Shown: piece after piece, positions 26,988 to 64,000 of the stretch
How the letters are laid out: every line of letters starts with the position of its first letter
How positions within the stretch are numbered: the stretch's first letter is position 1
Assembly: GCA_016709665.1 (NCBI GenBank)
Contig: JADJMI010000018.1
Span: 3,431 to 67,430 of the forward strand
Direction of reading: 5' to 3'
Length of the DNA: 64,000 nt
Source: Betaproteobacteria bacterium
GTDB lineage: Bacteria > Pseudomonadota > Gammaproteobacteria > Burkholderiales > Usitatibacteraceae
Notes under the pieces: model-generated
The model's database searches: none
The model's input: the letters and a program-made list of their open reading frames with translations, nothing else
What the model was told of the DNA's origin: nothing
Program-made: the position numbers and the translations under genes

Positions 26988-26988
26988 A

Positions 26989-29900: not shown

Positions 29901-30382
29901 GATCCTCGCGACGCTCCAGCCCGGCGCCTACACCGCGATCGTCTCGGGCGCGGGCGGGGTGACGGGCGTAGGCATCGTGGAGGTGTTCGAAGTGGACACG
30001 CCCGCCACGCCGCTCATCAACATCGCCACGCGCGGCGCGGTGCTCACCGGGAGCGACGTGATGATCGCGGGCTTCGTGATCCAGGGCCCGGGCGCGCAGA
30101 CGGTGGTGGTGCGCGCGCGGGCCTTCGCTCGCGCAGGCCGGTGTCGCGCAACCGCTCGCCAACCCGCTGCTGCAACTCTTCGCGGGCGCGACGTCGATCG
30201 CATCCAACGACGACTGGACCGTCTCGGGCAACGCGGCGGCCATCCAGGCGAGCGGCTTCGCGCCCGCGCACGCGAAGGAGGCGGCGATCCTCGTGACGCT
30301 GCAACCGGGCGCCTACACCGCGATCGTCTCCGGTGTGGGCGGCACCACCGGCGTGGGCATCGTCGAAGTCTTCATTCCCTGA
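26989..30382 (+). pseudogene. Dual-propeller NHL/IPT secreted protein A with twin NISTR...EVF module; 2-nt (GC)n contraction at 30111-30119
   Basis: Signal peptide ...FLAALVALLLAAMASTMARA; the start is GTG 26989 or GTG 27058. The architecture is propeller 1, IPT, propeller 2, then the twin module from ~29620. Against paralogue B, the run gtgcgcgcgcgcggg is shortened to gtgcgcgcgcggg. The restored frame ends VEVFIP-stop at 30380-30382. The out-of-frame read-through creates the artificial 1945-aa ORF. Confidence 0.85.
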
Positions 30383-30405
30383 ACGCGAAACCGAGGCTAT
30401 CCCCG

Positions 30406-33400: not shown

Positions 33401-33731
33401 CGACGTGATGATCGCGGGCTTCGTGATCCAGGGCCCGAGCGCGCAGACGGTGGTGGTGCGCGCGCGCGGGCCCTCGCTCGCGCAGGCCGGTGTCGCGCAA
33501 CCGCTCGCCAACCCGCTGCTGCAACTCTTCGCGGGCGCGACGTCGATCGCATCCAACGACGACTGGACCGTCTCGGGCAACGCCGCGGCCATCCAGGCGA
33601 GCGGCTTCGCGCCGCCGAACCCGCGGGAAGCCGCGATTCTCGTGACGCTGCAACCGGGCGCCTACACCGCGATCGTCTCCGGCGTGGGCGGCACCACCGG
33701 CGTGGGCATCGTCGAAGTGTTCATCCCCTGA
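30406..33731 (+). pseudogene. Dual-propeller NHL/IPT secreted protein B with twin NISTR...EVF module; frame break at ~32020-32035
   Basis: Signal peptide MKSTPTRFLAAFLIACAGLARA. The frame of ORF 26989..32826 holds up to GRVFLSQAQ. The protein then continues as ALSWPSHADLRNGQSADVVIG... in the frame of ORF 32130..33731. It ends GVGIVEVFIP-stop. Confidence 0.85.
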
Positions 33732-46841: not shown

Positions 46842-48084
46842 GTGAACGATCCCCGCACCGTCTTCCTCGCCTTCCTCACCAGCGTGGCCATCGGGCTGCT
46901 GGTGGGGCTCGAGCGCGAGCGCCACCCGGAATCCAAGGCGGGCATCCGCACCTTCGCCCTCATCTCGCTCGCCGGCGCCCTGTGCGCCATGCTGGGCGAG
47001 AAGGCCGGCTCGGCGTGGGTGCTGGTGGCGGGCCTCCTCGCCTGCGCCGGCGGCGTGCTGTCGGCCTACCGCGCCGACGGCGACGCGAGCTGGGATTCGG
47101 GCACCACCACCGTCGTCGCGGCCGTGGTCACCTACGGGCTGGGCGCGGCGACGTGGTACGGCTTCGAGGACCTCGCCGTCGCCCTCGCCATCGTCGTCAC
47201 GGTGCTGCTTCACTTCAAGGCGCAGATCGAGGGGTTCTCGGTGCGCCTCACCGCGAAGGACGTCGCGAGCCTGCTGCAGTTCGCGGTGCTCTCGCTCGTC
47301 ATCCTGCCGGTGGTGCCCAACGAGGGCTTCGGCCCCTACGGGGCGTTCAACCCCTACCACCTGTGGCTGATGGTCGTGCTCATCTCGGCGGTGAGCCTGG
47401 CGGGCTACCTCGCCTTCCGGCTCGCGGGCGGGCGGGCGCCGGCCCTGCTGCTGGGCGCGATGGGCGGCCTCGTCTCGAGCACGGCGACCACGCTCGTGTA
47501 CGCGCGGCGCGAAGGGCGGCCCGAGCTGAGAACACGGCGGCGACCGTGATCCTGCTCGCCAACCTCGTGGTGTTCGTGCGCATCGCGGTGCTCACGGCCG
47601 TGGTGGCCCCGGCGCTGCTGCCCGTGCTCGCGCCCGTGCTCGCCGCAGGCCTCGTCGCGACGCTGCCGGTCGCTTGGGTCACGTGGAAGCGCCACCAGGC
47701 CGAGGCGGGCTTCGCGAGCCCGGAACTCACCAACCCGACGGATCTCAAGGTGGCATTGGGCTTCGGCGTCGCCTACGCGGCGATCCTCGTCGCCGGCGCG
47801 TGGCTCAACGACGTGGCGGGCGCGCGCGGCCTGTACGGACTCGCCTTCGCCTCGGGCCTCACGGACGTGGACGCGATCTCGCTCTCGGCCATGCGCCTCT
47901 TCGGCGACGCCTCGATCCCGGCAGGCACCGCGGCCATGGCGATCGTGGTGGCGATCCTCTCCAACGTGATCGTGAAGGCCGGCATCGCGTTCGTGGCGGG
48001 CGGGGCGGCGCTCGGGCGGCGGTGCCTGGCGGGCTTCGGGCGATGGCGGCGGCCCTGGTGGTCTCGGCGCTCGTCGTCGGCTAG
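46842..48084 (+). pseudogene. MgtC/SapB + DUF4010 integral membrane protein, two frame breaks (~47505-47530 and ~48030-48042)
   Basis: VNDPRTVFLAFLTSVAIGLLVGLERERHPESKAGIRTFALISLAG (MgtC-type). The protein continues as ENTAATVILLANLVVFVRIAVL... in the frame of ORF 46982. The tail AMAAALVVSALVVG-stop is in the frame of ORF 47674..48084. Confidence 0.7.
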
Positions 48085-48167
48085 CCGGGCCCCATTCGCG
48101 CCCCCGGGAGGCGGGCCCGTATAATTGACGGTTGCTTCCCGCCCCCCAATCCCACAAGGAAAACCCC

Positions 48168-48938: not shown

Positions 48939-49216
48939 CGTCCGGAATTCCCCAATGAATCCGGGCTGTTGGCGAAACGTGCGAAGAGTGGCCACACCCC
49001 CGGTGGCCAACATTCCGGCCGTTTTGCCCTCTACCCCCTCTCCGTTATCTGTTTCTGCGAAGAGCGCTCTTCGCTCCACCCCTGCCATTTCAAGGGGTTA
49101 GCAATTTCGATTTGAGCAAGTTCTTGGTCATCAAGGGCGACCCCTTCAAGGGATCGCATAGTGAGCCTGACTGCTGCCAAACTTTGAAAGCCCATAGCTC
49201 GCGGGTTGAAACTTTT

Positions 49217-50482
49217 GCCTCTCTTGAATTCTGAGTGGGTATTCTGGCGTCATATTCAACATGGTGGCGAGGATCTGAGATGACGGCGAAGGTGTTTGAG
49301 GCGGCGCTGGGGATCGTCGAGCCTTGGTCGGTGAAGTCGGTGGACTTCAAGGAAGCGGCCAAGTTGCTGACGATCCAGATCGACTTCACGCCGGGCAGCC
49401 GTTTTCCGGTGCCCGGCCACGAGGGCGTGCATCCGGTGCACGACACGGTGACCAAGACGTACCGGCACCTGAGCTTCTTCCAACACGAGTGTCACCTGCA
49501 GGTGCGTACGCCGCGGGTGAAGCTGCCCGACGATTCGGTGCGCCTGATCGAGCCGGGCTTCGCCGGTCGACTGTCGGGCTTCACGCTGCTCTTCGAGGCG
49601 ATGATCCTGATGCTGGCACGGCAGATGCCGTTTGCGGCCGTTGCACGCATCGTGGGGGAGTCGGCCTACCGGGTCATGGCGGTGGCAGCGTCGAGCTTGC
49701 CCCGGGCGGCCGACTTGAGTGGCGGAAGGCGCTGGCCATCGACAGACTCGCGGCCCGTGGCCACGACTACATCACCGGCCGCGATGCGCCGAGCGCCGGG
49801 TGCTGTTCGTCACCGAGGGACGCGACGCCGAGACCATCAAGGCGCTGGCCTGCGATCTCGAAGAGCACGGCTGCGCGCGCGAGGCGATCGAGTCGGTGAG
49901 CATCGACATGTCGCCAGCCTTCATCAAGGGCGTGAGCGAGGCATTGCCCAACGCCCAGATCACCTTCGACAAGTTCCACGTCGTCGGCCACGCCAACACG
50001 CCTGGACAAGACGCGCCGCATCGAGCAGCGGACGACAAGTCCTCAGGGATGCGCTGGACGCTGCTGCCAGGACCGTGCCGCCCAAACCTGAGGCCGCCGC
50101 CGACCTCGACGCTTGATCGCCAGGTCACCACCAGCGCACCGCCGAGCTGGGTCTACAAGGAGCAGTTGCGCGCGATCCCGAGCGCAAGCAGATCAATGTC
50201 GGCGCGCCATGCTCAGCATGGGCACCTGATGCGACCCAAGGTCGAGCCGATGAAAGAGGTCGCCAGGATGATCCGCCGTCACATCGAGGGCATCGTCGCC
50301 TGGACCCAGACCCGCCAGACCAACGGCTTCCTTGAAGCCATTAACGGCCTCTTCCACCGCCAAGCGCCGCGCCCGCGGTTTACGCGCCTTCCACCATCAG
50401 GACGGTCTTCCGTCGCCGGCAAGCTCGACTTCCGCGCAATCAACCCTCATGCCCCGCAACCCACTTGAAATTCAACAGAGCC
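49217..50482 (+). mobile_element. ISL3-family insertion sequence (decayed transposase) with imperfect terminal inverted repeats and 8-bp target-site duplication
   Basis: IRL is GCCTCTCTTGAATTCTGAGTGGGT (49217-). The reverse complement of the right end is GGCTCTGTTGAATTTCAAGTGGGT (to 50482), 19 of 24 positions matching. The identical flanking octamer AAACTTTT occurs at 49209-49216 and 50483-50490. Confidence 0.88.
49280..50468 (+). pseudogene. ISL3-family transposase, multiple frame disruptions
   Basis: MTAKVFEAALGIVEPWSVKSVDFKEAAKLLTIQIDF ... YRHLSFFQHECHLQVRTPRVKLPD is an ISL3 N-terminus. Recognisable segments (VLFVTEGRDAETIKAL..SIDMSPAFIKGVSEALPNAQITFDKFHVVGHAN and VEPMKEVARMIRRHIEGIVAWTQTRQTNGFLEAINGLF) are spread over all three frames (ORFs 49235, 49324 and 49719). 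Confidence 0.85.
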
Positions 50483-50530
50483 AAACTTTTGCACTATCCT
50501 GATCAGCATTCCCGCTTTCGGGAGGATGTG

Positions 50531-50738
50531 ATGACACCACGCAGTGCGCAGGCCGAGATCCTGACCATCAGGGAGGTCGCCGGATACCTGAAGGTCACGC
50601 AGCGGACGATCTACAGGCTAGCCGCAGCCAAGAAGATCCCTGCATTCAAGGGTTGGCGGGACGTGGCGCTTCCGGCAGGTAGACATCGACGGCTGGATCG
50701 CAGCCCAATCGAAGAACGCGGAGGGGCAAGCAGGTTGA
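50531..50738 (+). pseudogene. Excisionase-family (HTH_17-like) DNA-binding protein, frame break at ~50648-50655
   Basis: MTPRSAQAEILTIREVAGYLKVTQRTIYRLAAAKKIPAFK is followed, after a 1-nt shift in a G run, by VGGTWRFRQVDIDGWIAAQSKNAEGQAG-stop (TGA 50736-50738). A GGGAGG ribosome-binding site lies upstream of ATG 50531. Confidence 0.65.
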
Positions 50739-53643
50739 TCTCCGCCTACCACGCCAAGTACTACGCCCATGAGCTGACTCGACGTCATGGGGCCGATGGC
50801 GTCGACCGCCTCTCTCTCAGTCGCTGTTTGACGCCAGCGTCGATCTGAACCCGCACCAGATCGAAGCGGCGTTGTTCGCCCTGCGCAATCCGCTGCAGGA
50901 AGGCGTACTGCTTGCCGACGAAGTCGGTGTGGGCAAGACCATCGAAGCATCGCTTGTGGTCTGCCAGTACTGGGCTGAACGCCGCCGCCGTCTGCTGGTG
51001 ATTTGTCCTGCGAGCCTGCGCAAGCAGTGGGCGCAGGAGATGCACGACAAGTTCGCGGTGCCGACCACCGTAGTCGATGCTGTGTCCCTGCGCAAGCAAG
51101 CCGCAGGCGACATCCTCGCCACCTTGCAGCGCATGGTCGGCAAGGCGGTCGTAATCATGTCCTACCAGTTCGCCGTCAAACTGGAAACCGAGCTGCGCGC
51201 AGTGCCGTGGGATGTAGTGGTCATAGACGAAGCGCACAAGCTGCGCAATGCGCACCGCCCCAGCAACCGCACTGGCCAGGCGCTTAAGCGCGCCTTGGCG
51301 GGCCGCAAAAAACTATTGCTAACCGCCACGCCGCTTCAGAACTCGCTTATGGAGCTGTACGGACTGTCCACGCTGCTAGACGAGCACCTTTTCGGTGATG
51401 AAACCGCGTTCCGCAGGCAGTTCATGAGCAGTGCCACGGGCACAGCCGAGTTGCGGGAGCGTCTCGCATCCTTTGCCAAGCGCACGCTTCGACGCGAAGT
51501 GCTCGAGTACATCAAGTACACCGAACGCAAGACGCTGACCCAGCCCTTCGATCCCACTGACGATGAGCAGTCACTTTATGAACGCATCTCGACTTTTTTG
51601 CAGCGTGAGGATTCGTACGCCCTGCCAAAGCGGCAGCGCCACCTCACCGCGCTGATCCTGCGCAAGCTGCTGGCCTCCAGCTCTCACGCTGTGTCAGCAA
51701 CGCTCATCACAATCCGCCAACGGCTGGTACGGCTGCTGGATGGAACAAGCGACGACAACGGCAGCCAACTAGTCGAGCAGCTCATCGCCGAAGACGACTT
51801 GGAGCAGGACTATCTGGAAGAGGAAGCGGCCGAGGATGAAGACGCGCCAACGGACGACGCGCGACCCGCAGAGGACGACGACAAGCCCAATCCCAACGCC
51901 CTCCGTGCCGAAATCGCCGAGCTGACCGCCTTTATTGACGCCGCCCAGGCCCTGCAAACGGACACCAAGGCGCAGGCGCTACTCACGGCGCTCGCCCTCG
52001 GCTTCGGCAAGATGGCCGAGCTGCGCGCCCCTCGCAAGGCCATCATCTTCACGGAGTCCAGGCGTACACAGGAGTACCTGCATCGCTTTCTCTCTGCCAA
52101 CGGCTACATGGGCAGATTAGTGCTTTTTAGCGGCACCAACACCCGCGAAGAGTCCACAGCAATCTATCAACGCTGGCTTGAGGAGTTCAAGGGCACAGAC
52201 CAGTCACAGGTTCACCGCAGGTAGATCGCCGCACGGCCTGATCGATCACTTCCGCCAGGACGACGGCACAGGCGCGGAAATCATGATCGCCACCGAAGCC
52301 GCAGCTGAGGGCGTCAACCTGCAGTTCTGTGCGCTCATCATCAACTACGACCTGCCGTGGAACCCGCAACGCATTGAACAGCGAATTGGTCGTTGTCACC
52401 GTTACGGTCAACGCTACGACGTAGTGGTCATCAACTTCCTCAACACCCGAAACCAGGCCGATCAGCGCGTGTTGGAACTGCTCACTGAGAAGTTCAACCT
52501 GTTCTCCGGCGTATTCGGCGCGTCTGACGAAGTGCTAGGCCGCATCGAAGGCGGGCTGGACTTCGAGAAACGCATCCTGCAGATATACGACACCTGCCGT
52601 CAGCCGGAGCAGATCGAAGCCGCCTTCAACGCACTGCAAGCGGAACTGGAAGAAGTCATTGCCGACCGCATCAAGGACACCCAGACCCAGTTGCTGGAAA
52701 CTTCGACGAGGATGTCCACGACCGCCTCAAGCTACGTCTGGACGAAGCCGAAGCCAGGCTCGACAAGCTTGGCCGATGGTTCTGGGGCGTCACCCGCTAT
52801 GCCCTGAGTGACCGGGCGCGCTTTGACGAGCAGTCCTATGCCTTCTCCCTGATCAGGCCGCCGGAGGCGCTTACCTCTAAGTGCTGCCGGGCCGCTACCA
52901 ACTCATTCGTGGCGCGGCACAGCCTGACATACTGGCTCACGCCTACCGCCTCAGCCATCCGCTGGGCGAGTGGAGCATTGACGCCAGCCTCAACGCCTCT
53001 ACACCGCTCGCCGCACTGAAGCTGACTACGGCAAGCACGGCACGCGCATCTCCGTCGTTGAGAAGTTGCGAGGCAATTCCGGCTGGCTCACGCTGGTACG
53101 TCTGGAAGTAACCGCCTTCGAGACAACCGAGGCGCTGCTGTTCTCGGGCTGCACCGACGATGGTGAGCTACTCGATCAGGAAGCCTGCGAAAAGCTGCTG
53201 ACGATCCCGGCGGCAGGCAAGCCTGTCGCTGCCCACGATGATGCCCAAGCAGCCTTGAAGCCAACAGCCAGCGCCGCGTGGAGGCCACCATTGCCGAAGT
53301 GCTCGAAGCCAACCAGCGCCTGTTCAATGAAGAACGAGACAAGCTGGAGCGCTGGGCCGACGACAAGCTGTTGGCGGCCGAGGAAGCCCTCAAGAACACC
53401 AAGGCGCTCATCGCCCAGCTGAAACGCGATGCCCGGAAGGCTGCCAGCCTGCAAGAGCAGGACGGCATCCAGCGCGAGCTGTCGGAACTGGAGCGCAAGC
53501 AGCGCCGCCTGCGCCAGGACATCTTTGCCGTCGAGGACGAGATCATCGAAAAGCGCGACGCGCTCATCGCCTCACTCCAGCAGCGACTGCACGAGAAGAC
53601 TGACACCCAGACCCTGTTCACCCTGCGCTGGCAGGTGGTGTGA
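50735..53643 (+). pseudogene. SNF2/Rad54-family helicase (defence-type, DrmD-like N-terminus), at least 7 frame disruptions
   Basis: ISAYHAKYYAHELTRRHG ... DLNPHQIEAALFALRNPLQEGVLLADEVGVGKTIEA (motif I), VVIDEAHKLRN (motif II), LLLTATPLQNSLMELY, NLQFCALIINYDLPWNPQRIEQRIGRCHRYGQ (motifs V/VI), and a coiled-coil C-terminus. The pieces lie in ORFs 50465, 50872, 52178, 52881, 53066 and 53278. Breaks occur at ~50809-50820 ((CT)n), 52200-52245 (two), 52696-52700 (A run), ~52875, ~53020 and ~53270. Confidence 0.85.
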
Positions 53644-56600
53644 AGCGCACAACCAACAACGAAGAAATCAAGGCCCGAATCATGACCACGAAACAAAACG
53701 TCAAATTCCAGGAGCTCGTCGCCAAGCTGCGCGAGATTTTTCAGATCGACCGTCCGGAACTGGATTTCGGGATCTACCGCATCCTCAACGCCCGAGCCAG
53801 CGAGATCAACGACTACTTGGAGAACCGGCTGGCAGAGAGAGTTCAGGCGGCACTAGCTTTAGGCAGCGCAGCCACCACCCAGCAACTACAAGCGGAATTG
53901 CAGGAGGCCGAGAAAAGCGCACAGGCCCTGGGCGTCAGCCCCGATGGCGTGCCCAAGGTCCAGGAGCTGCGTGCCCGATTGAAGGATGCCAGCGCAGGCA
54001 GCTTCGAGCACGAAAACGCTGTGTTTTCGCACTTGCTGGCCTTCTTCACCCGCTACTACCAGGACGGGGACTTCATCAGCCAGCGCCGTTACAAGGGCGA
54101 CACCTACGCCATCCCCTACGCGGGCGAAGAGGTGATGCTGCACTGGGCCAACAAGGATCAGTACTACACCAAGAGCGGCGAGAACTTCAGCAACTACAGC
54201 TTCAAGCTCGAAGACGGCCGCACGGTCCACTTCCGCCTCGTGGCCGCCGACACCGCCAAGGATAACCGCAAGGACAACGACAAGGAGCGTCGCTTTGCGC
54301 TAATTGAGCGCAAGACCACCACCCGTATCGACGAGCAGGGCGACGAGGTCGAAGATGAACTGTTGCCGATCGGGGAAGTGGATGGCGCCAACGGAAAAGA
54401 GCTGATCGTCCGCTTTGAGTACAGGCCTGTCGCGAAGGGCACCAAGCAGGAGGCCCTGGTAGCCCAAGCCGTGGTGACTTTGTTGGCCGATCCTGCCGTC
54501 AAGGCCCGCTGGCTCGACTTGGGCATCCGCGCCCCCACCGAGAAGAACCCCCAGCGCACCCTGCTGGAAAAGCACCTGAGCGACTACACCATCAAGAATA
54601 CGGCCGATTACTTCATCCACAAGGATCTGGGTGGCTTCCTGCGCCGGGAACTGGACTTCTACATCAAGAACGAGGCCATGCACCTGGACGATGTCCAGCA
54701 CGCGAACGCGTTTGCCGACATCGAGAAGTCGTTGCGCATGATTCAGTGCCTGAGGAGTATCGCGCTGGAACTAATCGTATTTCTGGCGCAGCTAGAAGAC
54801 TTCCAGAAGAGGCTGTGGCTGAAGAAGAAGTTCGTGGTGTCCAGCCACTTCTGCATCACGCTGGATCGAGTGCCGGAGACGCTTTATCCAGAGATTGTGG
54901 CAAATGAAAAGCAGTGGCAGCAGTGGAAGCTACTCGGCATTTGGGATGCTGATGTGCCAGGTTCGGTGGAAACCTTGAAGGCAGGCCAATTCCGGATGGT
55001 CGACACGAGTCTTTATAGCTACGAATTCAGGCGAAGACTACTTAGCGCGTCAGAGAACTTGGACAGCACCATTGATGGTGTGCTGATTCATGGAGACAAC
55101 TTCCAAGGCCTAGGTCTTCTAGAAAAGCGATACGCACGGGATGTTGACTGCGTCTATATCGACCCACCCTACAACTCTGACGCCAGTGCCATTTTGTACA
55201 AGAACGGCTACAAGTCCTCAAGCTGGGTTTCTTTGATGCAGAGTCGCCTGCAACGAACGCGAGCGCTTCTAAAAGATGCAGGCGTTCTGGTTGCAGCGAT
55301 CGACGATGCTCAACAAAGGGAACTAAGCTTTCTTCTTTCGGAGGTCTTCGACAACAACTCGCTCGGGGTAATAACAGTACGCTCAAACCCTTCAGGGCGT
55401 CCTACTCAGAGCGGGTACGCCGTGTCTCATGAGTACCTACTGTTTGCAGGAAACTCAAGCGAATCGAAGATTCAGCGCTTACCACCAACTCCAGCGCAGA
55501 TGGCTCGGTTTAATGAGGCCGATGAATTAGGGGCGTTCGAGTGGCGGAACCTACGTCGTGAAGGCTCAGACTCCGACAGGAATGAACGCCGGTCCATGTA
55601 CTACCCCATCTATATAACTGGCGAAGCCCTCCGCGTGCCACCGCTTGAGTGGAAAGAAGATACAGAAGAATGGATTCCACTTGAGCCCCCCGGCGCAGAC
55701 GACACCGTAGTGCTTCCCGACAATGAGGATGGAGTACAGAAGCGTTGGCGTTGGGAATGGAGGACCGTCGAGGCCAAGAAATCTCAGCTCGCGGTGAGAA
55801 GGGATCGGTCCGGGAAGAGGTACGTGTACTGCAAGAGACGGCCCAACGAAGACGGCGTGGTGTCTGTGTCGACATGGGCGGACGCGAAGCATTCCGCCAC
55901 TGAGCACGGCACTGCACTGCTGAAGAACCTGTTTGGAAGTAATCCCTTCTCCTATCCAAAGTCGATTCACGCCGTAGTGGACGCGATCTATGTCGCAGGC
56001 GCTGTAGATCCCAAATCACTGACATTCGACTACTTCGCGGGTTCTGGAACAACCGCACATGCAGTCATAAACCTGAACAGGAGAGACAAAGGGCAGCGGC
56101 GATATGTTTTGGTCGAGCAAGGGGAATACTTTGACCGGGTCCTGAAGCCGCGAATTCAGAAGGCCGTCTACTCGGAGCGCTGGGAGCAAGGGAAACCAAC
56201 GGCTCCTGAGACTGGCCTCTCCCACTGCTTCAAGGTCCTCAAGCTCGAAGGCTATGAGGACACGCTGAACAACCTGCAACTGCGCCGCACGGCCGGACAA
56301 GACAATCTGTTCGCCAAGCTGCCACAGCAGGCCAAAGACGACTACCTGCTGCATTACATGTTGGATGTGGAAAGCCGGGGCTCGCTCTTGTCGGTGGAGG
56401 ACTTCAAGAAGCCCTTCGACTACGCGCTGAACGTCGCTGTCGATTCAGCGGGGGCCTTTGAGCCGCGCAACGTCGATCTAGTGGAGACCTTCAACTACCT
56501 AATCGGCCTTCGTGTGAAGCACATCGATGCCCAACCCGAGCGCGGCTTTGTCACCGTCACGGGCGTGATGCCCAGCGGTGAGTCCTGCCTCGTGCTTTGG

Positions 56601-56825
56601 CGCGACTGCGAGGTGCTGGACTACGAAGGTGTCGCCGGGCTTTGCGACAAGCTAGCCATTAACCCGGCGGACAACGAATTCGACGTGGTCTACATCAACG
56701 GCGACCACAACATTCCGACCGTGCTGACGCAGACTGCCGAGGAAGGCGGTGCCACCCGCGTGCTCAAGTTGCGGCAGATCGAACCGGAGTTTCTGTCACA
56801 CATGTTCTCGGTAGAGGACATCTGA
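53640..56825 (+). CDS. Type III Mod-like (beta-class N6-adenine/N4-cytosine) DNA methyltransferase with a long N-terminal extension
   Basis: Motif IV VYIDPPYNS (~55161) precedes motif I DYFAGSGTTAHAV (~56030), which is the beta-class order. The N-terminal ~330 aa (ELDFGIYRILNARASEINDYL...) are unassigned. The start is GTG 53640 (overlapping the SNF2 stop, GTGA) or ATG 53682. The reading frame is intact. Confidence 0.85.
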   Translation: MKRTTNNEEIKARIMTTKQNVKFQELVAKLREIFQIDRPELDFGIYRILNARASEINDYLENRLAERVQAALALGSAATTQQLQAELQEAEKSAQALGVSPDGVPKVQELRARLKDASAGSFEHENAVFSHLLAFFTRYYQDGDFISQRRYKGDTYAIPYAGEEVMLHWANKDQYYTKSGENFSNYSFKLEDGRTVHFRLVAADTAKDNRKDNDKERRFALIERKTTTRIDEQGDEVEDELLPIGEVDGANGKELIVRFEYRPVAKGTKQEALVAQAVVTLLADPAVKARWLDLGIRAPTEKNPQRTLLEKHLSDYTIKNTADYFIHKDLGGFLRRELDFYIKNEAMHLDDVQHANAFADIEKSLRMIQCLRSIALELIVFLAQLEDFQKRLWLKKKFVVSSHFCITLDRVPETLYPEIVANEKQWQQWKLLGIWDADVPGSVETLKAGQFRMVDTSLYSYEFRRRLLSASENLDSTIDGVLIHGDNFQGLGLLEKRYARDVDCVYIDPPYNSDASAILYKNGYKSSSWVSLMQSRLQRTRALLKDAGVLVAAIDDAQQRELSFLLSEVFDNNSLGVITVRSNPSGRPTQSGYAVSHEYLLFAGNSSESKIQRLPPTPAQMARFNEADELGAFEWRNLRREGSDSDRNERRSMYYPIYITGEALRVPPLEWKEDTEEWIPLEPPGADDTVVLPDNEDGVQKRWRWEWRTVEAKKSQLAVRRDRSGKRYVYCKRRPNEDGVVSVSTWADAKHSATEHGTALLKNLFGSNPFSYPKSIHAVVDAIYVAGAVDPKSLTFDYFAGSGTTAHAVINLNRRDKGQRRYVLVEQGEYFDRVLKPRIQKAVYSERWEQGKPTAPETGLSHCFKVLKLEGYEDTLNNLQLRRTAGQDNLFAKLPQQAKDDYLLHYMLDVESRGSLLSVEDFKKPFDYALNVAVDSAGAFEPRNVDLVETFNYLIGLRVKHIDAQPERGFVTVTGVMPSGESCLVLWRDCEVLDYEGVAGLCDKLAINPADNEFDVVYINGDHNIPTVLTQTAEEGGATRVLKLRQIEPEFLSHMFSVEDI

Positions 56826-59701
56826 TGGCACGCCCACGAAAGACCACAGCCGCCTCTGTCGGCACTGCTGGCTCAAGAAGCGGTGGCAAGAAGCGCACCT
56901 TCCACCAGGAACTGGTACTTAATCGCTGGATGTTGGGCTTCTTCAGGGGGGGCAGTCTCAGCGCCTTGAAGCTGCGGTTGGGCGATGATCGCCACGAGGG
57001 GATCGACGAGGACGGACAAACAAAGTTCTTTCATGAGCTGACGCGCAACCTTTTCGAAGTGGATCGTGTATCTGAGGCCGATCTGCGTCGCTACGACCTG
57101 AACATCGTTGGCCATTGGCAGGCCATCACTTCCCAGCGCAACAAGCTGGAAGGCCATGAACTGCAGATGAAGTACTTTCAGTACCTCTCACTGCTGTTCA
57201 CCGAGATCTACCTGGACTGGTACTTCAACAAGCGCCAGGACCTGCTGGATGGTCTTAACGAGGAGTTGGTGCGCTACAGCGCCGAAACTGGCGCAGAGCC
57301 CTTCCGCGACTTTGATGCGGACGATCTGAACAAGATCGCCTTCTGGAACGCCACGGGCAGCGGCAAGACGCTTCTGCTGCACGTCAACATTTGGCAGTAC
57401 TTGCATTATTTCCAGGCTGGCCGAGGCGACCACTACCCGAGCAAGATCATCCTGCTCACGCCGAACGAGGGCTTGTCGCGCCAGCATCTGGAGGAGCTGC
57501 ACTTGTCGGGCTTCGGCTTCGCCCAGTTCTTCAACAAGGCGCAGACCCCTGCGCGTGGGACTATCGAGATCATCGACATCAACAAGCTGGGCGATGAGAT
57601 GGGTGACAAGACAGTCGCCGTGGATGCGTTTGAGGGAAACAACCTGGTGCTGGTGGACGAAGGCCACCGTGGTACTGGCACGGCGGCAGGCGCGTGGATG
57701 AGTCGCCGTGATGCGCTGGTGCGCGGCGGCTTTGCCTTCGAGTACTCGGCGACCTTTGGGCAGGCCGTGGCCAAAGGATTGACCGTGTCGGCGGCGGAAG
57801 AAGACATCCAGAAGAAGCGCGCCAAGATGCTGTTCGACACGACCAGCCTGAAAAAGCTGGACGACGGCCAGCTTGCCCAGCTTGCGCTAACTCCCGAGGA
57901 CAGGCGCCGCGCGCGGGTCACCGCTACTCGCGAGATCTACGCCAAGTGCATCTTGTTCGACTACTCGTACAAGTTCTTCTACGAGGACGGCTACGGCAAG
58001 GAATCGCTGATCCTCAACATGAACGGAGAGGCCTATGAGCCGGCGGAGAACGCCCGCAAGTATTTCACTGCCTGTCTGCTGGCCTTCTATCAGCAGCTTT
58101 GGCTGTGGAGCACCCACCGCGAAAAGCTGACCGACTTCAACATTGAAAAGCCGCTGTGGGTGTTCGTGGGTAACACAGTGTCAGGTGAGGAGTCGGACAT
58201 TCTGGAGGTGGTGAACTTTCTCGCCGACTTCCTGAACAACGATGCGCAGATTAAGACCTGGCTGGCCGATCTGATCGCCGACCGGACGCAGATTGTGGAC
58301 GCCAAGGGCAACAATATCTTCCAGGGTCGATTCACACCCCTCATGGGATTCGTGGATCAGGTGGACGCGCTGTACGCCGACATCCTGGTGCGCGTGTTCA
58401 ATGCCCAGGCGAAGCAACGGCTTAAACTGGTCAACATCAAGAGTAGCAAGGGAGAGCTGGCGCTGCGGGTGGGCGACGCGGAACCCTTCGGCCTCATCAA
58501 CATTGGCGACGACGCAGGCTTCTTCGGGATGGCCGAGGACTCCGACGCCTTCGACAGCGAGCGCGATGACTTCGGCGGCGCGTTGTTCGGAACGCTGAAC
58601 AACAAGGACAGCCAGCTCAACGTGCTGATCGGGTCGCGCAAGTTCACGGAAGGGTGGAGCAGTTGGCGCGTGTCCACTATGGGCCTCCTGAACATGGGCC
58701 AGGGCGAGGGCTCGCAGATCATTCAGCTGTTCGGGCGCGGCGTGCGCCTAAAGGGCAAGGGCTTTTCGCTTAAGCGCACAACGCCGCAGGAACGACCCAA
58801 GGGTGTGCATCTGGACAAGCTGGAGGCGCTGAACATTTTCGGCGTGCGCGCCAGCTACATGGCTGCATTCAAGGACTATTTGCGCGAAGAAGGCATCACG
58901 CCCAGCGACGAAATTCTGGAGCTCGATTTCCCCACACGACCCAACCTGCCCGCGGGCAAGCTCAAGACGCTGGCGCTGAAGGACGGCTACAAGGACAACC
59001 AGAAGATGGGCTTCAAGCGCACCCACTTCCCGTGGTTGTACGAAATACCCGCAAAGTTCCAAGGAAAGATCAAAGCGCCACACGTGGTGCTTGACCTATA
59101 CCCCCGCGTCGAGGCGCTGGCCACGAACGACAAAGGCTCGGCCAGCACGGCCGAAGCAAGGCACAAGGGCAAGTTGAACGCGAGCGTGTTTGCTGTGTTC
59201 GACTGGGATTGCATCTATCTGGCGTTGCAGGACTACAAACTGCAACGGAGCTGGAGCAACCTGCGGCTAGACCGACAGAAACTGATCGACTTCTGCGCAG
59301 GTGCACCTGACTGGTACACGCTGTTCATCCCTGCGGTGGAACTGGCCGTGAACACGTTCAGCGACATTCGCAAGCAGGAGGACATCCTGATCCGACTGCT
59401 GACCGACTACACCGACCGCTTTTACAAGGCGCTGAAGACCGGCTACGAGGGGCAATTCTACGACGTCACGCGCATCGATGAAGACCACGGCTCGATGCTC
59501 AAGCTCTACCAGTTCGAGATCGAAAACAGCGATGACGGGCTGGAGTATCAGAAGAAGCTGGAAGTGCTGAAGAAGCTGGTGGCCGACGGCAAGATCGGTG
59601 AGGCCAGCAAATGGAACGCTCCTCACATGGTTGCTGTTAGTTTCGACCGACACCTTTACTACCCGCTGATGGCGCTGGAAGACAAGGACGCGGTGCCTTG
59701 A
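56825..59701 (+). CDS. Type III Res-like SF2 helicase/ATPase (no recognisable nuclease domain)
   Basis: Walker A FWNATGSGKTLLLH, motif II LVLVDEGHRGT, FEYSATF, KFTEGWSSWRV and QLFGRGVRLKG (Res-type motifs V/VI). The start ATG shares one nt with the Mod stop (TGATG). The frame is intact over 958 aa. Confidence 0.8.
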   Translation: MARPRKTTAASVGTAGSRSGGKKRTFHQELVLNRWMLGFFRGGSLSALKLRLGDDRHEGIDEDGQTKFFHELTRNLFEVDRVSEADLRRYDLNIVGHWQAITSQRNKLEGHELQMKYFQYLSLLFTEIYLDWYFNKRQDLLDGLNEELVRYSAETGAEPFRDFDADDLNKIAFWNATGSGKTLLLHVNIWQYLHYFQAGRGDHYPSKIILLTPNEGLSRQHLEELHLSGFGFAQFFNKAQTPARGTIEIIDINKLGDEMGDKTVAVDAFEGNNLVLVDEGHRGTGTAAGAWMSRRDALVRGGFAFEYSATFGQAVAKGLTVSAAEEDIQKKRAKMLFDTTSLKKLDDGQLAQLALTPEDRRRARVTATREIYAKCILFDYSYKFFYEDGYGKESLILNMNGEAYEPAENARKYFTACLLAFYQQLWLWSTHREKLTDFNIEKPLWVFVGNTVSGEESDILEVVNFLADFLNNDAQIKTWLADLIADRTQIVDAKGNNIFQGRFTPLMGFVDQVDALYADILVRVFNAQAKQRLKLVNIKSSKGELALRVGDAEPFGLINIGDDAGFFGMAEDSDAFDSERDDFGGALFGTLNNKDSQLNVLIGSRKFTEGWSSWRVSTMGLLNMGQGEGSQIIQLFGRGVRLKGKGFSLKRTTPQERPKGVHLDKLEALNIFGVRASYMAAFKDYLREEGITPSDEILELDFPTRPNLPAGKLKTLALKDGYKDNQKMGFKRTHFPWLYEIPAKFQGKIKAPHVVLDLYPRVEALATNDKGSASTAEARHKGKLNASVFAVFDWDCIYLALQDYKLQRSWSNLRLDRQKLIDFCAGAPDWYTLFIPAVELAVNTFSDIRKQEDILIRLLTDYTDRFYKALKTGYEGQFYDVTRIDEDHGSMLKLYQFEIENSDDGLEYQKKLEVLKKLVADGKIGEASKWNAPHMVAVSFDRHLYYPLMALEDKDAVP

Positions 59702-59703
59702 AG

Positions 59704-60216
59704 ATGCGCCCACTGGCCTTCGATGCGCCAAGCGAATGGGAATTCGTTCGGGATCTGGAATCGTTCTACAACTCGCCCGCTGGCAAAGTCGCCATCGGGT
59801 CGCGCAGCCTGTACCTGCTGCGCAATGCGGATCGTGAGGAGAAGGGTCTGGGATTTGCGCTGGCTGGCAACTTTTACCCGGACTTCTTGCTGTGGCTGGT
59901 GGACGATGCCACCGGCAAGCAATGGTTGACATTCGTCGATCCCAAGGGCCTGCGCAACCTTGATCTCTCACACCCCAAGCTTGGGCTCTACAAGGAGGTG
60001 AAGTCACTGGAGACGACGCTGGCGGCTCAGGCCAAGCCCGGTGAGCCACCCCTGGTCTTGAACGCCTTCGTACTGTCCCCCACGAAGTTCTCCGACCTGC
60101 TCAATGTGGGCGATCCAACAAAGAAGGCCGAGTTGGAGGAGCGACATGTGCTGTTCATGGAAGACGGCGGAGACGCCTACCTGAAGAAGCTGTTTGCAAA
60201 GGTGGCAGCCGCATGA
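59704..60216 (+). CDS. Small PD-(D/E)xK-like nuclease candidate (split-off Res endonuclease domain?)
   Basis: FYPDFLLWLVDD ... QWLTFVDPKG fits the Y-PDF ... (D/E)xKG pattern of Type III Res and restriction-endonuclease-fold domains. The ORF begins 3-6 nt around the Res stop (TTG 59698 or ATG 59704). Confidence 0.5.
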   Translation: MRPLAFDAPSEWEFVRDLESFYNSPAGKVAIGSRSLYLLRNADREEKGLGFALAGNFYPDFLLWLVDDATGKQWLTFVDPKGLRNLDLSHPKLGLYKEVKSLETTLAAQAKPGEPPLVLNAFVLSPTKFSDLLNVGDPTKKAELEERHVLFMEDGGDAYLKKLFAKVAAA

Positions 60217-60351
60217 CCGGTCAGGACGCCAAAGTCCCCATGGCAATTGCTCGCTGCAGTACCCTTCCGGCCCAATAGACTTACCGGAGAGGCCCCACTG
60301 CGGTGCCGTTCCGCTCGCGCTGATTAATGCTTCTATGAAGCGTGGCGTGTC

Positions 60352-61434
60352 TCAGCTGACTGCGGCGACAGGGGCGTGCCGAGTCAGTCGCTCCAGCGCA
60401 AAACTTAGGGCGCGATCGTCGAACAACCGATCCTTGCGCTCTGCCGCGCCCGGTCCACCGCACCAATGGCGCAGGCCTTCTCTGACCGCCGTCACGTTGG
60501 GCGCAACGCCCTCGTTCGCGAGGAGCCAATCAACCGTCGCCAACAATTCCATGCCGAAAGGCGACTCGAATCCATCAATCAGCGCTGCCGTGTACTCCAG
60601 CGCCTCAAGATAAGGCTTAGCTTCCGTCTTGAGATAGGTTTGCAAGAAGCCCTTCCGCTCGTCGTCAAACCAAATCACGTCGAGTGGGTCTGCGTCGCTG
60701 ATCCGCTTCTCGCAGTGAAGGTAGCTTCCGTCAAGGTTATTAAGCAGATGAGTTAGGCGGTTGGCGTATGGACCGTACTTGTTTGGTATGAACCGTAGGT
60801 CCAAGGGGTTGTCCGCCGGGGAAAAGCGCTCGATTGCGCGCTCCAAGAACCACGCGAGCGTCTGAATCTCCAGCAAGCTGCACTCCATGCCAAGTACCCA
60901 ATAGCGTCGAACCAGTTCGGCGATCAGGGCGCGGGCCGGTGTCAACTTCTCGACGCCGCTTCGCTTGGCCACGTTTTGGTACTGCTTTGTCGGCTCGAAG
61001 ACCAGAATGTCGATGTCGAGGTCGCCCAGTGCGGCCTCGATCTGCGCTCGGACGTCGGCCCATTCGAGGCCTCCATTCCCCGATCCTAGGGGCGGGATGG
61101 CGACCGACTTCACTTCATTGGCAAGCAGGACACGACGCAGATCCTGGAGCCCTTCGACGATCCACTCCATCCGGGATGGAGCACGCCAATGTTGCTTGGT
61201 GGGGAAGTTGATAATCCAGCGCGGACCGTTCAGCTCGTGGACTTCGGTCACAAAGACCTTCCCGGTCTGTATCTGGCTGGCCTTACAGGCAGCCGAATAG
61301 AGGCGGAAATTTTCCGCGAACCGTTCCTTGAACATAAGGGCAATGCCCTTGCCCATCACACCGACGGTATTGACGGTGTTGACCAGCGCCTCAGCCCTAG
61401 CTTCTAGCAAGTTGCCTTGTCTGAGCGTGATCAT
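60352..61434 (-). CDS. darG: DarG antitoxin (macrodomain ADP-ribosylglycohydrolase plus C-terminal DarT-binding domain)
   Basis: [39 protein letters not shown] ... [12 protein letters not shown] ... [11 protein letters not shown] is a macrodomain signature. The ATG shares one nt with the darT stop (TGATG). Confidence 0.88.
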
Positions 61435-62084
61435 CAGAAATACCACTTTGGCAGAACTAGAACTTCCAGCTTCATGTCTTCTCTCTGGATCTGGGCTTCA
61501 AGCGCCGATTTTACCGCTTCGGTATAGCAGACTACCGCGATCAGTCCGGTGATGGGTAGCTGTCGGTACACGAGGGCCTCGGCCTGATAGCGTTCGATTT
61601 GCTCGGGGTCATCTGGATTGCGCTGAAAATTACGAGTCTGGAGCAACGGCCAGTCAATCTTGCCCAGGTCATCAAGCTCGTTGGAAAAGTTGGCCAACGA
61701 TGTATAGGCATGTCGATCCGTGAATACGAAATCGAGCTCCATCGCTTTAACCTTCGGCAGGCTGGAGACGAGAATGCAGATCTCTTCATTGCGACGTCTT
61801 GGGACTTCGCCGCGTCCGGTATAGATGTTGTACATCATGGGCGAAAACGGAGTGAAGTAGAACGGAACGTAGTCGGCCAGTGTGCCTCCCGGTGCCACCA
61901 GGACATTACGATGCGTCCGTCGACTGATCAAGTCAGCGTTACCAATTGCGACGTAGTTCGGGTCTCGCACTGGAGAGTTCGCACAGTGCAAGCCATTGCG
62001 CATTATCCATGGAAGATTATCGCGATGGACGATGCGCCAGATCAGCGCCTTCTCCGGGTTCAGGTTGGGGTAGTTGTTAGCCAT
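61434..62084 (-). CDS. darT: DarT (DUF4433) ssDNA thymidine ADP-ribosyltransferase toxin
   Basis: [34 protein letters not shown] ... [17 protein letters not shown] ... FVFTDRHA ... ERYQAEALV is the DUF4433 pattern. It lies immediately upstream of the macrodomain gene. Confidence 0.88.
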
Positions 62085-62189
62085 TCACCGGCTCCAGGAA
62101 CGTGCAACAGCCCGCCACCGTGACCCGTTGAGCCGTTGGCTTGGGCGCGACCATCACGTCCTGCTTGGGCATTCGGTCGTCCTCTGTAC

Positions 62190-62513
62190 CTAGTCCAGAA
62201 CCACCAGAAATTCGGTGGCCAGCGCGGTCGGCCGAACATCGCGGACATTCCGGGTAAGCTCAACTAGTCCGTATCCCTCCATCATTCTCAACGTCCGCGA
62301 CAGGTTCGACACCTGCCGGCCTGTCAGCGCGGCCAACTCGGTCAGGGTCTTCGGCTGTGCATCCCGAATGACCCGCAACAACGCCCGGTTCTCCTCGGAT
62401 AGCACAGCTGCCATCGTCGCTGTCGATGGAAACCAGACTGTCGGGAGCCGCTTCGCCCCGCCATTGGTCTGGCCATTACTCGTTCCGCGTATGCCGACGA
62501 CACAACGCTTCAT
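62190..62513 (-). CDS. Winged-helix (MarR/ArsR-like) transcriptional regulator
   Basis: LSEENRALLRVIRDAQPKTLTELAALTGRQVSNLSRTLRMMEGYGLVEL forms the HTH core. The true start may be the internal Met (MAAVLSE). Confidence 0.65.
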   Translation of the reverse strand: MKRCVVGIRGTSNGQTNGGAKRLPTVWFPSTATMAAVLSEENRALLRVIRDAQPKTLTELAALTGRQVSNLSRTLRMMEGYGLVELTRNVRDVRPTALATEFLVVLD

Positions 62514-62604
62514 TTCCTGCGCTTCGGGGTCATGAGTGGAAGCGTAAGTTTATCACTGTGGCACAAGCATAGCGAGACTCCGTGTCTGCCAAGACATTCG
62601 ACCG

Positions 62605-63086
62605 TCACAGGAGAATGCGAGCCTCAGCATTGCGGCGAGCAACGAGGCCGGGGAGCACTCTGCCACCACCGTAGACCCAGCGCCGCAATTCCGATGCTGC
62701 ATCCCCCGGGCTTGCTGGATGAGCCTGCGTCGGAGTGTTGATGTCTGTAGACGTCCCGCGCCGAGATTGAATGTGAAGTCGACGATGGCTGCGAGCCGGC
62801 CCTCGGGCTCTGTGGCGAGCGCCGGGCAGTACCGCAGGGTCGCGTTAAGGGCGGAGAGCAGGTCGTGCGCCAGGTAGTCCTCCGCTTCCGCCTCGGTGAT
62901 CGGTGGGTGCTGCGGGTCGCAGAGATGACCGTAGCCGATCGTCCAGCAGTAGCCCGCGGGGCAGATGGGTGCGCCCTCCCCGGATCCATCCTTTGGCACC
63001 CGGTGGAATCCCTCGAACCGCTTTGCAAGTTCACGGCGGCCTGCGGCACCGCAATCACGGCCGCACCCGGTCAAACACGCGCCCAA
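62605..63086 (-). pseudogene. Phage endolysin (GH24 lysozyme-like), frame break at ~62700-62715
   Basis: LAKRFEGFHRV ... WTIGYGH ... AIVDFTFNLGAGRLQTSTLRRRL. The expected tail AASELRRWVYGGGRVLPGLVARRNAEARILL-stop (TGA 62605-62607) lies in another frame, after a C/G homopolymer run. Confidence 0.75.
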
Positions 63087-63174
63087 GGAACCAGAAATTG
63101 CAGCACCCGGCCCAGAGCCTGATCGGCCTCGGTCCAGGCCTGCAACACGGCGGCACTCCAGCCGAGCCCGGCGG

Positions 63175-63528
63175 TCATGGCACCCACAAAGCCGCCGTCT
63201 TGGCCGCGCAGTAAAGGGCCATGAACCAGTAGGTGATCACAGGCCGCACGCTGACTGAGAGCGCATCGGCCCAGCGCACACCGGTCTTCTCCCCTTGGGT
63301 GCGGACCGCATCACGCAGGGCCTCGATGGCACCGGTGTTCCAGGCGGCATCGGCCCCCGCGCCAATTTCGGCCATCTTCTGGGCGCCACGCAGGCGGTCG
63401 AACTCCAACGCCTTGTCCTGCATCGCGAGTTCGTGGCCACGCTCGCTCTTTCGGTCGAACCACTTGAGAACTTCAGGTGCCAGGCGAAACACGCCACCCA
63501 GCAGACCACCCAACAGGGTCTCGATCAT
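63175..63528 (-). CDS. Phage membrane protein, holin-like
   Basis: MIETLLGGLLGGVFRLAPEVLKWFDRK... with a hydrophobic C-terminus ITYWFMALYCAAKTAALWVP. The ATGA overlap with the upstream ORF and the position just before the endolysin support the call. A 34-aa continuation (MTAGLGWSAAVLQAW...) lies in another frame. Confidence 0.5.
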   Translation of the reverse strand: MIETLLGGLLGGVFRLAPEVLKWFDRKSERGHELAMQDKALEFDRLRGAQKMAEIGAGADAAWNTGAIEALRDAVRTQGEKTGVRWADALSVSVRPVITYWFMALYCAAKTAALWVP

Positions 63529-63827
63529 TGCGAGCCTCCCATGATCTTGAACTTGATCGCTGCACCCAAGAGCGCGACCACCAGGAGGCTGGTTGTCGCG
63601 ACGCGGATCACGGTGCGCCAGGCGGTGCGGCGGGCATCGCGCCAGGCTTCGAGCAGATCGCGCAGCTCCCGGATGTCTTCGGCCGCATGGGGGCCCTCGA
63701 GGCCGAGGTGAACGAGCGCGCGCTCGGCGCCACGTTCGGCGGCGCGATCGAGCAGGTCCTCGAAATCCTCCTTGCGGACGGTGAGGACGTTGTCTTCGGG
63801 GGACGGTGTGATGTGTTCGGCGTTCAT
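63525..63827 (-). CDS. Phage lysis-cassette membrane protein (C-terminal TM)
   Basis: A 100-aa protein with an acidic/helical N-terminus and TM segment VIRVATTSLLVVALLGAAI. It is translationally coupled (ATGA) to the next ORF. Confidence 0.5.
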   Translation of the reverse strand: MNAEHITPSPEDNVLTVRKEDFEDLLDRAAERGAERALVHLGLEGPHAAEDIRELRDLLEAWRDARRTAWRTVIRVATTSLLVVALLGAAIKFKIMGGSQ

Positions 63828-63911
63828 TGGGTCTCCAAAGGCGAACCCGCCACGAGGGGCTGACTCTCGGGCGGGTTCCGGGTTGAATCACAGCTATGTC
63901 CTACGGGTGGA

Positions 63912-64000
63912 TCAAATCTCGATTACCTCCAGCGTGAGACTGGGTGCGACACCCTCGATGACGTCGTCGCGCACGAATACGGTTTGGCCAACCTGGGCAT
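63912..64000 (-). CDS. 3' end of an unidentified (phage?) gene running off the window
   Basis: An open frame ...VFVRDDVIEGVAPSLTLEVIEI-stop (TGA complement at 63912-63914). Only 29 codons are visible. Confidence 0.3.
   Translation of the reverse strand, partial: AQVGQTVFVRDDVIEGVAPSLTLEVIEI

Follow-up and report, generated by a model that had tools for sequence, protein, structure and literature searches.

A probable disrupted copy of a mobile HTH-SNF2-Mod-Res operon resembling Type III restriction-modification, next to DarTG in a betaproteobacterial genome

A 64,000 nt stretch of DNA from a Betaproteobacteria bacterium (assembly GCA_016709665.1, contig JADJMI010000018.1, positions 3,431 to 67,430; hereafter the window) carries a restriction-modification (R-M) cassette between positions 50531 and 60216. 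The cassette is a four-gene operon, all on the + strand, which encodes a helix-turn-helix (HTH) regulator, an SNF2-family ATPase, a methyltransferase (Mod) and a restriction protein (Res). It is not a set of five genes, as proposed in an initial annotation that counted a separate nuclease after Res, while the overlapping gene junctions reported there were confirmed. The window is considered to hold one copy of a widespread, horizontally mobile HTH-SNF2-Mod-Res operon, which is disrupted here and is carried together with DarTG at a prophage end; this reading is given a probability of roughly 75%. Judged by its sequence, the cassette is best described as belonging to a Type III-like R-M family in which Mod and Res are enlarged and SNF2 is a conserved partner. 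The features of the locus are given in Table 1.

The 958 amino acid (aa) open reading frame (ORF) of Res contains each of the motifs first reported for it, with GSGKT at residue 178, DEGH at 278, TEGW at 608 and GRGVR at 637, and it also contains SATF. It is followed in a different frame by a small ORF with the signature PDF...DPKG, which is 172 aa long (59698-60216), or 170 aa if it starts at the ATG at 59704. The signature is present as described, but the small ORF is not an independent nuclease gene. Read in the -1 frame, its product is 85% identical to residues 959-1128 of full-length Res, and in a tblastn search with a full-length homologue the alignment exits the frame at '...EDKDAVP*' and resumes in the -1 frame with 'LKMRPLAFDAPSEW...'. 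The PADLOC profile REase_III PDLC03654 (1154 positions) is divided between the two ORFs, with the 958 aa ORF covering positions 6-964 (1454 bits) and the small ORF covering 968-1125. DNA alignment with four intact relatives places the loss of one base at 59696-59698, where GTGCCCTTG becomes GTGCCTTG and a premature TGA results. The apparent 170 aa PD-(D/E)xK protein therefore exists because a 1-nt deletion at ~59696 cuts off the tail of Res.

This result bears on the reading of the locus as a new five-gene system, a hybrid of Type III R-M and DISARM with a separate nuclease subunit. Such a reading could draw on a 170 aa PD...DxK ORF with its ATG 3 nt past the stop of Res, and on a distant homologue in the Thermus phage phiLo (L104, 5780-9511). 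This jumbo phage encodes a 38%-identical Res homologue without the C-terminal nuclease domain, preceded by a small gene labelled 'putative restriction endonuclease' and by a 251 aa methylase. The gene arrangement of this distant relative differs naturally from that of the operon. However, of the 80 relatives surveyed, 78 have the nuclease and Res in one protein and the remaining two are cut by contig ends, so that the fusion is present in every complete relative, as it is in canonical Type III. The best 120 database homologues of the 958 aa ORF are also fused, all of them 1108-1152 aa long and 82-92% identical. In contigs that are 99% identical to the window the two parts form one protein, and at the junction the window lacks a single base that these contigs have. 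An exact search of Joint Genome Institute (JGI) metagenome contigs for the frameshifted Res allele gave 0 matches. The five-gene reading is thus almost certainly wrong, which removes the false lead of a split nuclease for this window.

The initial description of Mod as an intact 1061 aa protein with DPPY before FAGSGTT was borne out by the ORF list and the motif positions (residues 508 and 799, respectively). Mod matches the PADLOC profile MTase_III PDLC03646 from end to end (1163 bits) and Pfam PF01555 (N6_N4_Mtase) with E=7e-20. Its sequence matches in the PDB are the Type III Mods Mbo45V (8.7e-33), H. pylori 6k0w and EcoP15I (1.2e-18). An AlphaFold2 model of Mod has a predicted local distance difference test score (pLDDT) of 61, with 80-90 in the methylase core, and its best Foldseek matches are again these three Mods (6k0w, 4zcf and 7dsu; 1e-11 to 1e-14). 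The PADLOC profiles and the PDB sequence and Foldseek matches of Mod agree with the Type III-like Mod and Res core that had been proposed. The central DNA of mod (55012-56109) is the sole stretch where alignment to 85%-identical relatives fails, and this variable stretch would hold the target-recognition region, as expected for a specificity domain. The N-terminal ~470 aa are conserved within the family; they contain no Pfam domain, and no match other than to methyltransferases was seen for them among the Foldseek matches listed. The mod and res genes are co-oriented with a 1-nt overlap (TGATG at 56825), and the same order was found in all relatives surveyed. No tandem or simple repeats of note that could make mod or res phase-variable were found.

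The HTH and SNF2 genes lie where they were first placed, but neither is an open reading frame as annotated. Their spans (50531-53643) are not open, neither length is divisible by 3, and the coding sequence runs over at least five frame segments. The HTH gene is of the excisionase type, as proposed, with a match to HTH_17; its frame is broken by a +1 insertion that was mapped against L086, L001 and L097. The frame of the SNF2 gene jumps through seven indels, a +2 at ~50817 and a -1 at each of ~52204, 52238, 52701, 52879, 53025 and 53245. The indels of both genes were called base by base in DNA alignments against three intact relatives and a 99%-identical contig. The Walker A (GVGKT) and DEAH motifs of SNF2 look intact. 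The disrupted state of this copy had only been hinted at by mention of a 'repaired SNF2', and the indels found in HTH, SNF2 and Res number nine.

Table 1. Features of the locus in window coordinates, with differences from the intact twin contigs (98.99% identity; see text)
Feature	Position	Strand	Basis	Indels vs twin	Other differences vs twin
HTH_17 / excisionase-type regulator gene, 68 aa if intact	50531..50738	+	Pfam HTH_17, NCBIfam excise / MAD1-like matches, two-frame tblastn	+1 at 50652	3 substitutions
SNF2-family ATPase gene, DrmD-like, 970 aa if intact	50735..53643	+	Pfam SNF2-rel_dom and Helicase_C on separate fragments	7	11 substitutions
Mod, beta-class N6-adenine-type methyltransferase, intact 1061 aa	53640..56825	+	PADLOC MTase_III, Pfam N6_N4_Mtase, PDB/Foldseek matches	0 (L097)	2 amino-acid changes
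Res, N-terminal 958 aa, helicase-like ATPase of superfamily 2 (SF2)	56825..59701	+	PADLOC REase_III, Pfam ResIII	-1 at ~59696 (whole Res)	12 substitutions (whole Res)
Res, C-terminal PD-(D/E)xK nuclease domain, out of frame	59698..60216	+	PADLOC REase_III positions 968-1125		
DarG (60352-61446) and DarT (61434-62084), both intact	60352..62084	-	Pfam Macro, DarT; PADLOC DarG 405 bits, DarT 238 bits	DarG 0; DarT 0	DarG 1 amino-acid change; DarT 0
Prophage end: HTH_20 gene, endolysin, small lysis-region ORFs	62190..64000	-	Pfam Phage_lysozyme; PHROGs on intact contig	11 gap openings (endolysin and orf158 genes)	91-94% identity (endolysin and orf158 genes)
ISL3-family insertion sequence, 1266 bp	49217..50482	+	Pfam HTH_Tnp_ISL3, Zn_ribbon_ISL3, DDE_Tnp_ISL3 on two ORFs		

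The association of SNF2 with Mod and Res was assessed in a survey of one genome per species, in which 191 relatives of Res were found, 80 loci were retained and 64 had enough upstream sequence to judge. Identity within the Res family is 62-92% across Proteobacteria, Chlorobi, Verrucomicrobia and others. A full-length SNF2 gene lies upstream of Mod on the same strand in 56 of the 64 assessable loci (88%). In the other eight, one SNF2 is cut by the locus end, one is a remnant and six have none. SNF2 and Res diverge from the reference in step, their identities to it being correlated with r=0.86, and the start and stop codons of neighbouring operon genes are often overlapping or closely spaced. 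The best 120 database matches of SNF2 are 85-100% identical, a conservation as strong as that of Res. The SNF2-Mod-Res loci come from several phyla, with Klebsiella and E. coli plasmids and prophages among them; the four-gene order is also found on an E. coli IncF plasmid, on Klebsiella plasmids, and on Paraburkholderia and Klebsiella contigs. Full-length Res occurs on 21 plasmids. A megablast search of complete E. coli genomes with the Klebsiella locus matched the resolvase only. SNF2 is therefore not a chance neighbour in this family, whereas the small ORF, which had been listed as its fellow in the neighbourhood, is part of Res in every complete relative surveyed.

These counts can be set against the simpler explanation of a plain Type III R-M locus, in which SNF2 is an independent neighbouring defence gene that travels along. 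Six loci do carry Mod-Res but no SNF2, unrelated defence genes are often inserted into these loci, and in the window SNF2 is decayed with Mod still intact. An independent passenger is hard to reconcile with 88% co-occurrence in fixed order and orientation across several phyla, with stop and start codons that overlap or lie near each other, with the correlated divergence of SNF2 and Res, and with an SNF2 clade conserved as strongly as Res. A plain Type III locus with a passenger SNF2 is therefore unlikely.

Insertions into the operon were frequent in the survey. Gaps of more than 400 nt separate Mod from Res in 22 loci and SNF2 from Mod in nine (31 total), and those examined hold extra genes (L013, L022, L006 ~8.1-10.0 kb; L024, L051, L063, L040, L072, L084, L032, L079, L067). 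From a reading of their translations, the nested genes resemble an AAA ATPase with a DUF4276-like partner and YhcG/DUF1016-like, RhuM-like, PIN, Abi_2-like, Fic and PLD-like genes. Such gene nesting is well known in Type I R-M operons. The lead gene of the operon also varies. It may be a MAD1-like HTH_17 gene, a BrxR/WYL regulator (L087 3005-3916) or, in Klebsiella, a serine resolvase, and further lead genes lie at L002 3374-3952 and L001 3716-3928. This variation suggests that the lead genes are interchangeable control or mobility modules.

A fragment of this Res family is found on ~190 enterobacterial plasmids, mostly conjugative ones of E. coli, Salmonella and Klebsiella, which carry only 303 nt of it. 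The fragment corresponds to residues 654-754 with 81% identity, is labelled 'DUF1158 domain-containing protein' (e.g. NZ_CP116155.1 31899-32201), and looks like a widely copied gene remnant.

The cassette had initially been left without a place among named defence systems. This holds in part. The PADLOC Type III profiles match both Mod and Res from end to end and so place the pair, but SNF2 is left as an orphan DrmD-like match. The likeness to Type III R-M (EcoP1I/EcoP15I) is seen in the position of mod upstream of res with an overlap of a single nucleotide, and in Mod, which is of the beta class, has a central variable region and is related to solved Type III Mods in both sequence and predicted fold. 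It is also seen in an SF2 ATPase and a C-terminal PD-(D/E)xK nuclease that share one Res chain in the relatives, this chain being split in the window copy by the 1-nt deletion. The cassette differs from Type III R-M in the size of its proteins. Mod is ~1060 aa long with the conserved ~470 aa N-terminal extension, whereas the EcoP15I Mod chain matched in the PDB has 644 aa, and Res is ~1130 aa long with an unassigned N-terminus and no detectable sequence similarity to EcoP15I Res. Unlike in a two-component system, a third gene, SNF2, precedes mod in most loci, and the operon is often led by a small HTH or BrxR regulator.

The closest named relatives of the cassette SNF2 are the DrmD models of class 1 DISARM, the best matches being PADLOC DrmD PDLC02619 and NCBIfam DrmD_b, and members of the SNF2 family are named merely 'SNF2-related protein' at NCBI. 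The overall logic is also alike, with an adenine methylase as self marker, a second SF2 ATPase and a nuclease in addition to SNF2. It could thus be proposed that the cassette is a variant of class 1 DISARM in which DrmD and an adenine methylase act with a helicase-nuclease in place of DrmABC. However, the intact SNF2 homologue falls short of both NCBIfam cut-offs, reaching 638 bits where DrmD_b requires 950 and 283 where DrmD requires 610. Its match to DrmD_b covers positions 22-655 of 868, which is the helicase core only; the C-terminal ~300 aa are unmatched. As first stated, DrmB (DUF1998) and DrmC (PLD) are absent, and so is DrmA; none of the three was found in the window between 44 and 64 kb or on the intact contigs. 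The nuclease of the cassette is PD-(D/E)xK, whereas that of DISARM is PLD. DrmMI of class 1 DISARM is a pfam13659 adenine methylase (10.1101/2021.12.28.474362), whereas the cassette Mod is Type III-like and matches PF01555 only. Since DrmABC are missing, SNF2 scores below threshold and the methylase is of another family, the cassette is not assigned to DISARM, and a DISARM variant is considered very unlikely. The function of DrmD in DISARM itself is not established (10.1101/2021.12.28.474362).

Other named systems were compared on gene content. MANTIS/Gao_RL, which is BREX-related, is a methylation-based defence with two ATPases, a hemimethylating adenine methylase that supplies the specificity and a helicase-nuclease effector (10.64898/2026.09.23.753747, PMC12839542). 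It offers a mechanistic analogy for the second ATPase of the cassette. In contrast to MANTIS/Gao_RL and BREX, Pfam and PADLOC searches give the cassette no DUF499/BrxC-type AAA+ protein, MtsB, PglZ or PLD nuclease. Among the best 25 PADLOC matches per protein, the only matches of cassette genes to Gao_RL/BREX models are weak ones to BrxH-type helicases. There is also a likeness to MADS, in that the small HTH of intact relatives passes the NCBIfam MAD1 cut-off (83.2 bits for the intact homologue, cut-off 80) and the window HTH fragment matches PADLOC mad1. No other model of the mad1-mad8 set was matched by SNF2, Mod or Res among the best 25 PADLOC matches per protein. MANTIS/Gao_RL, DUF499-centred BREX relatives, MADS, ARMADA, Hma and DISARM were all ruled out on gene content. 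No description of SNF2 with Type III Mod/Res as a named system was found in the literature searched, which was covered in part and did not include REBASE. In one paper, adjacent genes of these kinds are listed for a Cronobacter island without comment.

The frameshifts can be set against a group of nearly identical contigs. Wastewater-metagenome contigs L089-L092 and L097-L102 are 98.99% identical to window positions 50483-63998 and encode intact HTH_17 (68 aa), SNF2 (970 aa), Mod (1061 aa) and Res (1130 aa) proteins. Res is followed on them by convergent DarG and DarT genes, an HTH_20 gene, an endolysin gene and phage tail genes. The window DarT has a match of 100% identity in a betaproteobacterial metagenome-assembled genome. 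The substitutions that separate the window from these twin contigs (Table 1) are mostly synonymous transitions, with synonymous to non-synonymous counts of 6:5 in SNF2, 8:3 in Mod and 9:3 in Res, and by this pattern they look like older allelic variation. They come as short patches (window 54089-54239, 59632-59669), which suggests small recombination tracts from related alleles, not scattered point mutation. An exact metagenome-contig search for the single nucleotide polymorphism (SNP) haplotype of the window SNF2, with or without two deleted bases, gave 0 matches.

It is possible that the frameshifts are consensus or assembly errors, for example from an incompletely polished long-read assembly of mobile DNA that varies between strains, and that the organism carries an intact and functional HTH-SNF2-Mod-Res operon. 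The nine indels in HTH, SNF2 and Res are mostly of a single base, yet there are few and mostly synonymous substitutions relative to a 99%-identical reference, which would fit such errors. Several of the indels fall within or beside SNP patches, and further frameshifts of the window fall in an insertion sequence (IS) transposase and in the strain-variable MgtC-DUF4010 flank, which is DNA that is typically hard to polish. On the other hand, the indels follow genes. There are eight in the 3.1 kb of HTH and SNF2 and 11 gap openings in endolysin/orf158, but one in ~8.5 kb of Mod, Res and DarTG, for which a uniform rate would give a probability of ~1e-5 (one or fewer). ORFs of 3-5.9 kb elsewhere in the window are uninterrupted, and base-calling error would not account for the IS insertion, which is a structural difference. 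An artefact with an intact operon behind it is given slightly less than an even chance, and the choice between real mutation and consensus error for the window indels stands at roughly even odds. The identity of the cassette is unchanged either way. The locus as written is predicted to be restriction-dead and at most a solitary methylase, with only Mod intact.

Several observations weigh against the interpretation of the window as a disrupted copy of a Type III-like operon with SNF2 as its partner. The six Mod-Res loci without SNF2, among the 64 that could be assessed, indicate that SNF2 may be accessory rather than integral. Nine indels against ~37 mostly synonymous substitutions are far above what plain neutral decay would predict. 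In addition, Res has no relative among solved structures, EcoP15I Res included, when compared with the PDB as a single sequence or as a profile (14 sequences, including the 38%-identical phage homologue). The profile matches of Res are those to its own family-specific, REBASE-derived REase_III model of PADLOC and, weakly, to Pfam ResIII (29.7 bits). The AlphaFold2 model of Res, built on a 30-sequence alignment, has a mean pLDDT of 44 and is too poor for fold comparison, and Foldseek found nothing below E=0.1 for it in the PDB. Since no solved relative of Res is available, Type III-like working rests on Mod, on motif content and on this family-specific REBASE-derived profile.

Beyond the gene content, the homologies, the indels and the conserved neighbourhood, which the sequence comparisons show, a mechanism can be proposed. 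Mod would recognise a short sequence and methylate the host DNA, and would also supply the specificity for restriction. Res, with its SF2 ATPase and fused nuclease, would cut unmethylated invading DNA in an ATP-dependent manner. SNF2 may be a second motor that tracks along double-stranded DNA and co-evolves with Res, and it most likely assists or licenses restriction. Its possible roles include long-range communication along the DNA, the clearing of bound proteins, or a checkpoint like that of the second ATPase in MANTIS (10.64898/2026.09.23.753747). The HTH protein would control expression of the operon, with a BrxR/WYL regulator or a resolvase in its place in relatives. Mod-Res pairs are also found alone, so that their persistence may not require SNF2. 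If the indels are real, their distribution, with seven in SNF2, one in Res and none in Mod, would suggest that protective methylation can do without SNF2. A role in the restriction arm is therefore favoured.

A more far-reaching and rather tentative proposal is that SNF2-Mod-Res is an undescribed three-component restriction family, in which a highly divergent Mod/Res pair of Type III-like kind has the SNF2 double-stranded DNA translocase as an integral partner. The long, unassigned N-terminal regions of Mod and Res would then be docking or regulatory modules for SNF2. If this is true, filing of the locus by classifiers as 'RM type III' hides a second motor and any new checking of self and non-self, even though the locus occurs in many phyla, in prophages and on clinical Klebsiella and E. 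coli plasmids; the classifiers would report 'RM type III' and an orphan DrmD-like gene. At the level of the family, the operon is a common and very strongly conserved module on plasmids and prophages that carries only generic annotation. Should SNF2 turn out to be a working subunit, the family would make it tractable to ask why a second ATPase is recruited by methylation-based defences such as DISARM, BREX and MANTIS. It would then also count as a further obstacle to the transfer of plasmids and phages in clinical Enterobacteriaceae, one now labelled as ordinary Type III R-M.

The operon lies in a region of distinct composition. The G+C content is 70-74% up to ~48 kb of the window and drops to 56-62% across 50-62 kb. 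An actinomycete host, which the value of 70-74% might suggest, was rejected, because the identical DarT and the flanks match betaproteobacterial contigs from wastewater metagenomes. The toxin-antitoxin defence pair DarTG adjoins the cassette on the other strand, as initially noted, so that DarG and DarT are convergent with Res; the arrangement is the same on L089-L102. DarTG is part of the same mobile island and is outside the operon. The intact contig carries phage tail and endolysin families (PHROGs), and one twin contig is present in IMG/VR. Since the prophage tail and endolysin genes lie beside the operon and DarTG, both are regarded as cargo at the end of a prophage.

On the upstream side the operon is bordered by an ISL3-family element, which ends 48 nt before the HTH start codon. 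The ends of the element, which were read directly from the sequence, form imperfect terminal inverted repeats and are flanked by an 8-bp target duplication, AAACTTTT, at 49209-49216 and 50483-50490; its transposase is split over two frames. It is not present in the otherwise 99%-identical contigs L097-L102. The element probably cuts the operon off from part of its promoter.

Two further regions of the window show signs of a broken frame. The MgtC-DUF4010 gene (window 46842-48124) is in two frames with a break at ~47.54 kb, with DUF4010 positions 1-47 in one window ORF and 44-210 in the other, and is one 415 aa protein on the related contig L098. Window positions 26956-33731 contain two NHL-repeat ORFs with an overlap of ~830 nt. 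The third-position G+C signal changes frame there at ~32.13 kb, 700 nt before the stop of the first ORF, and the overlap may be another frameshift, in a giant repeat protein.

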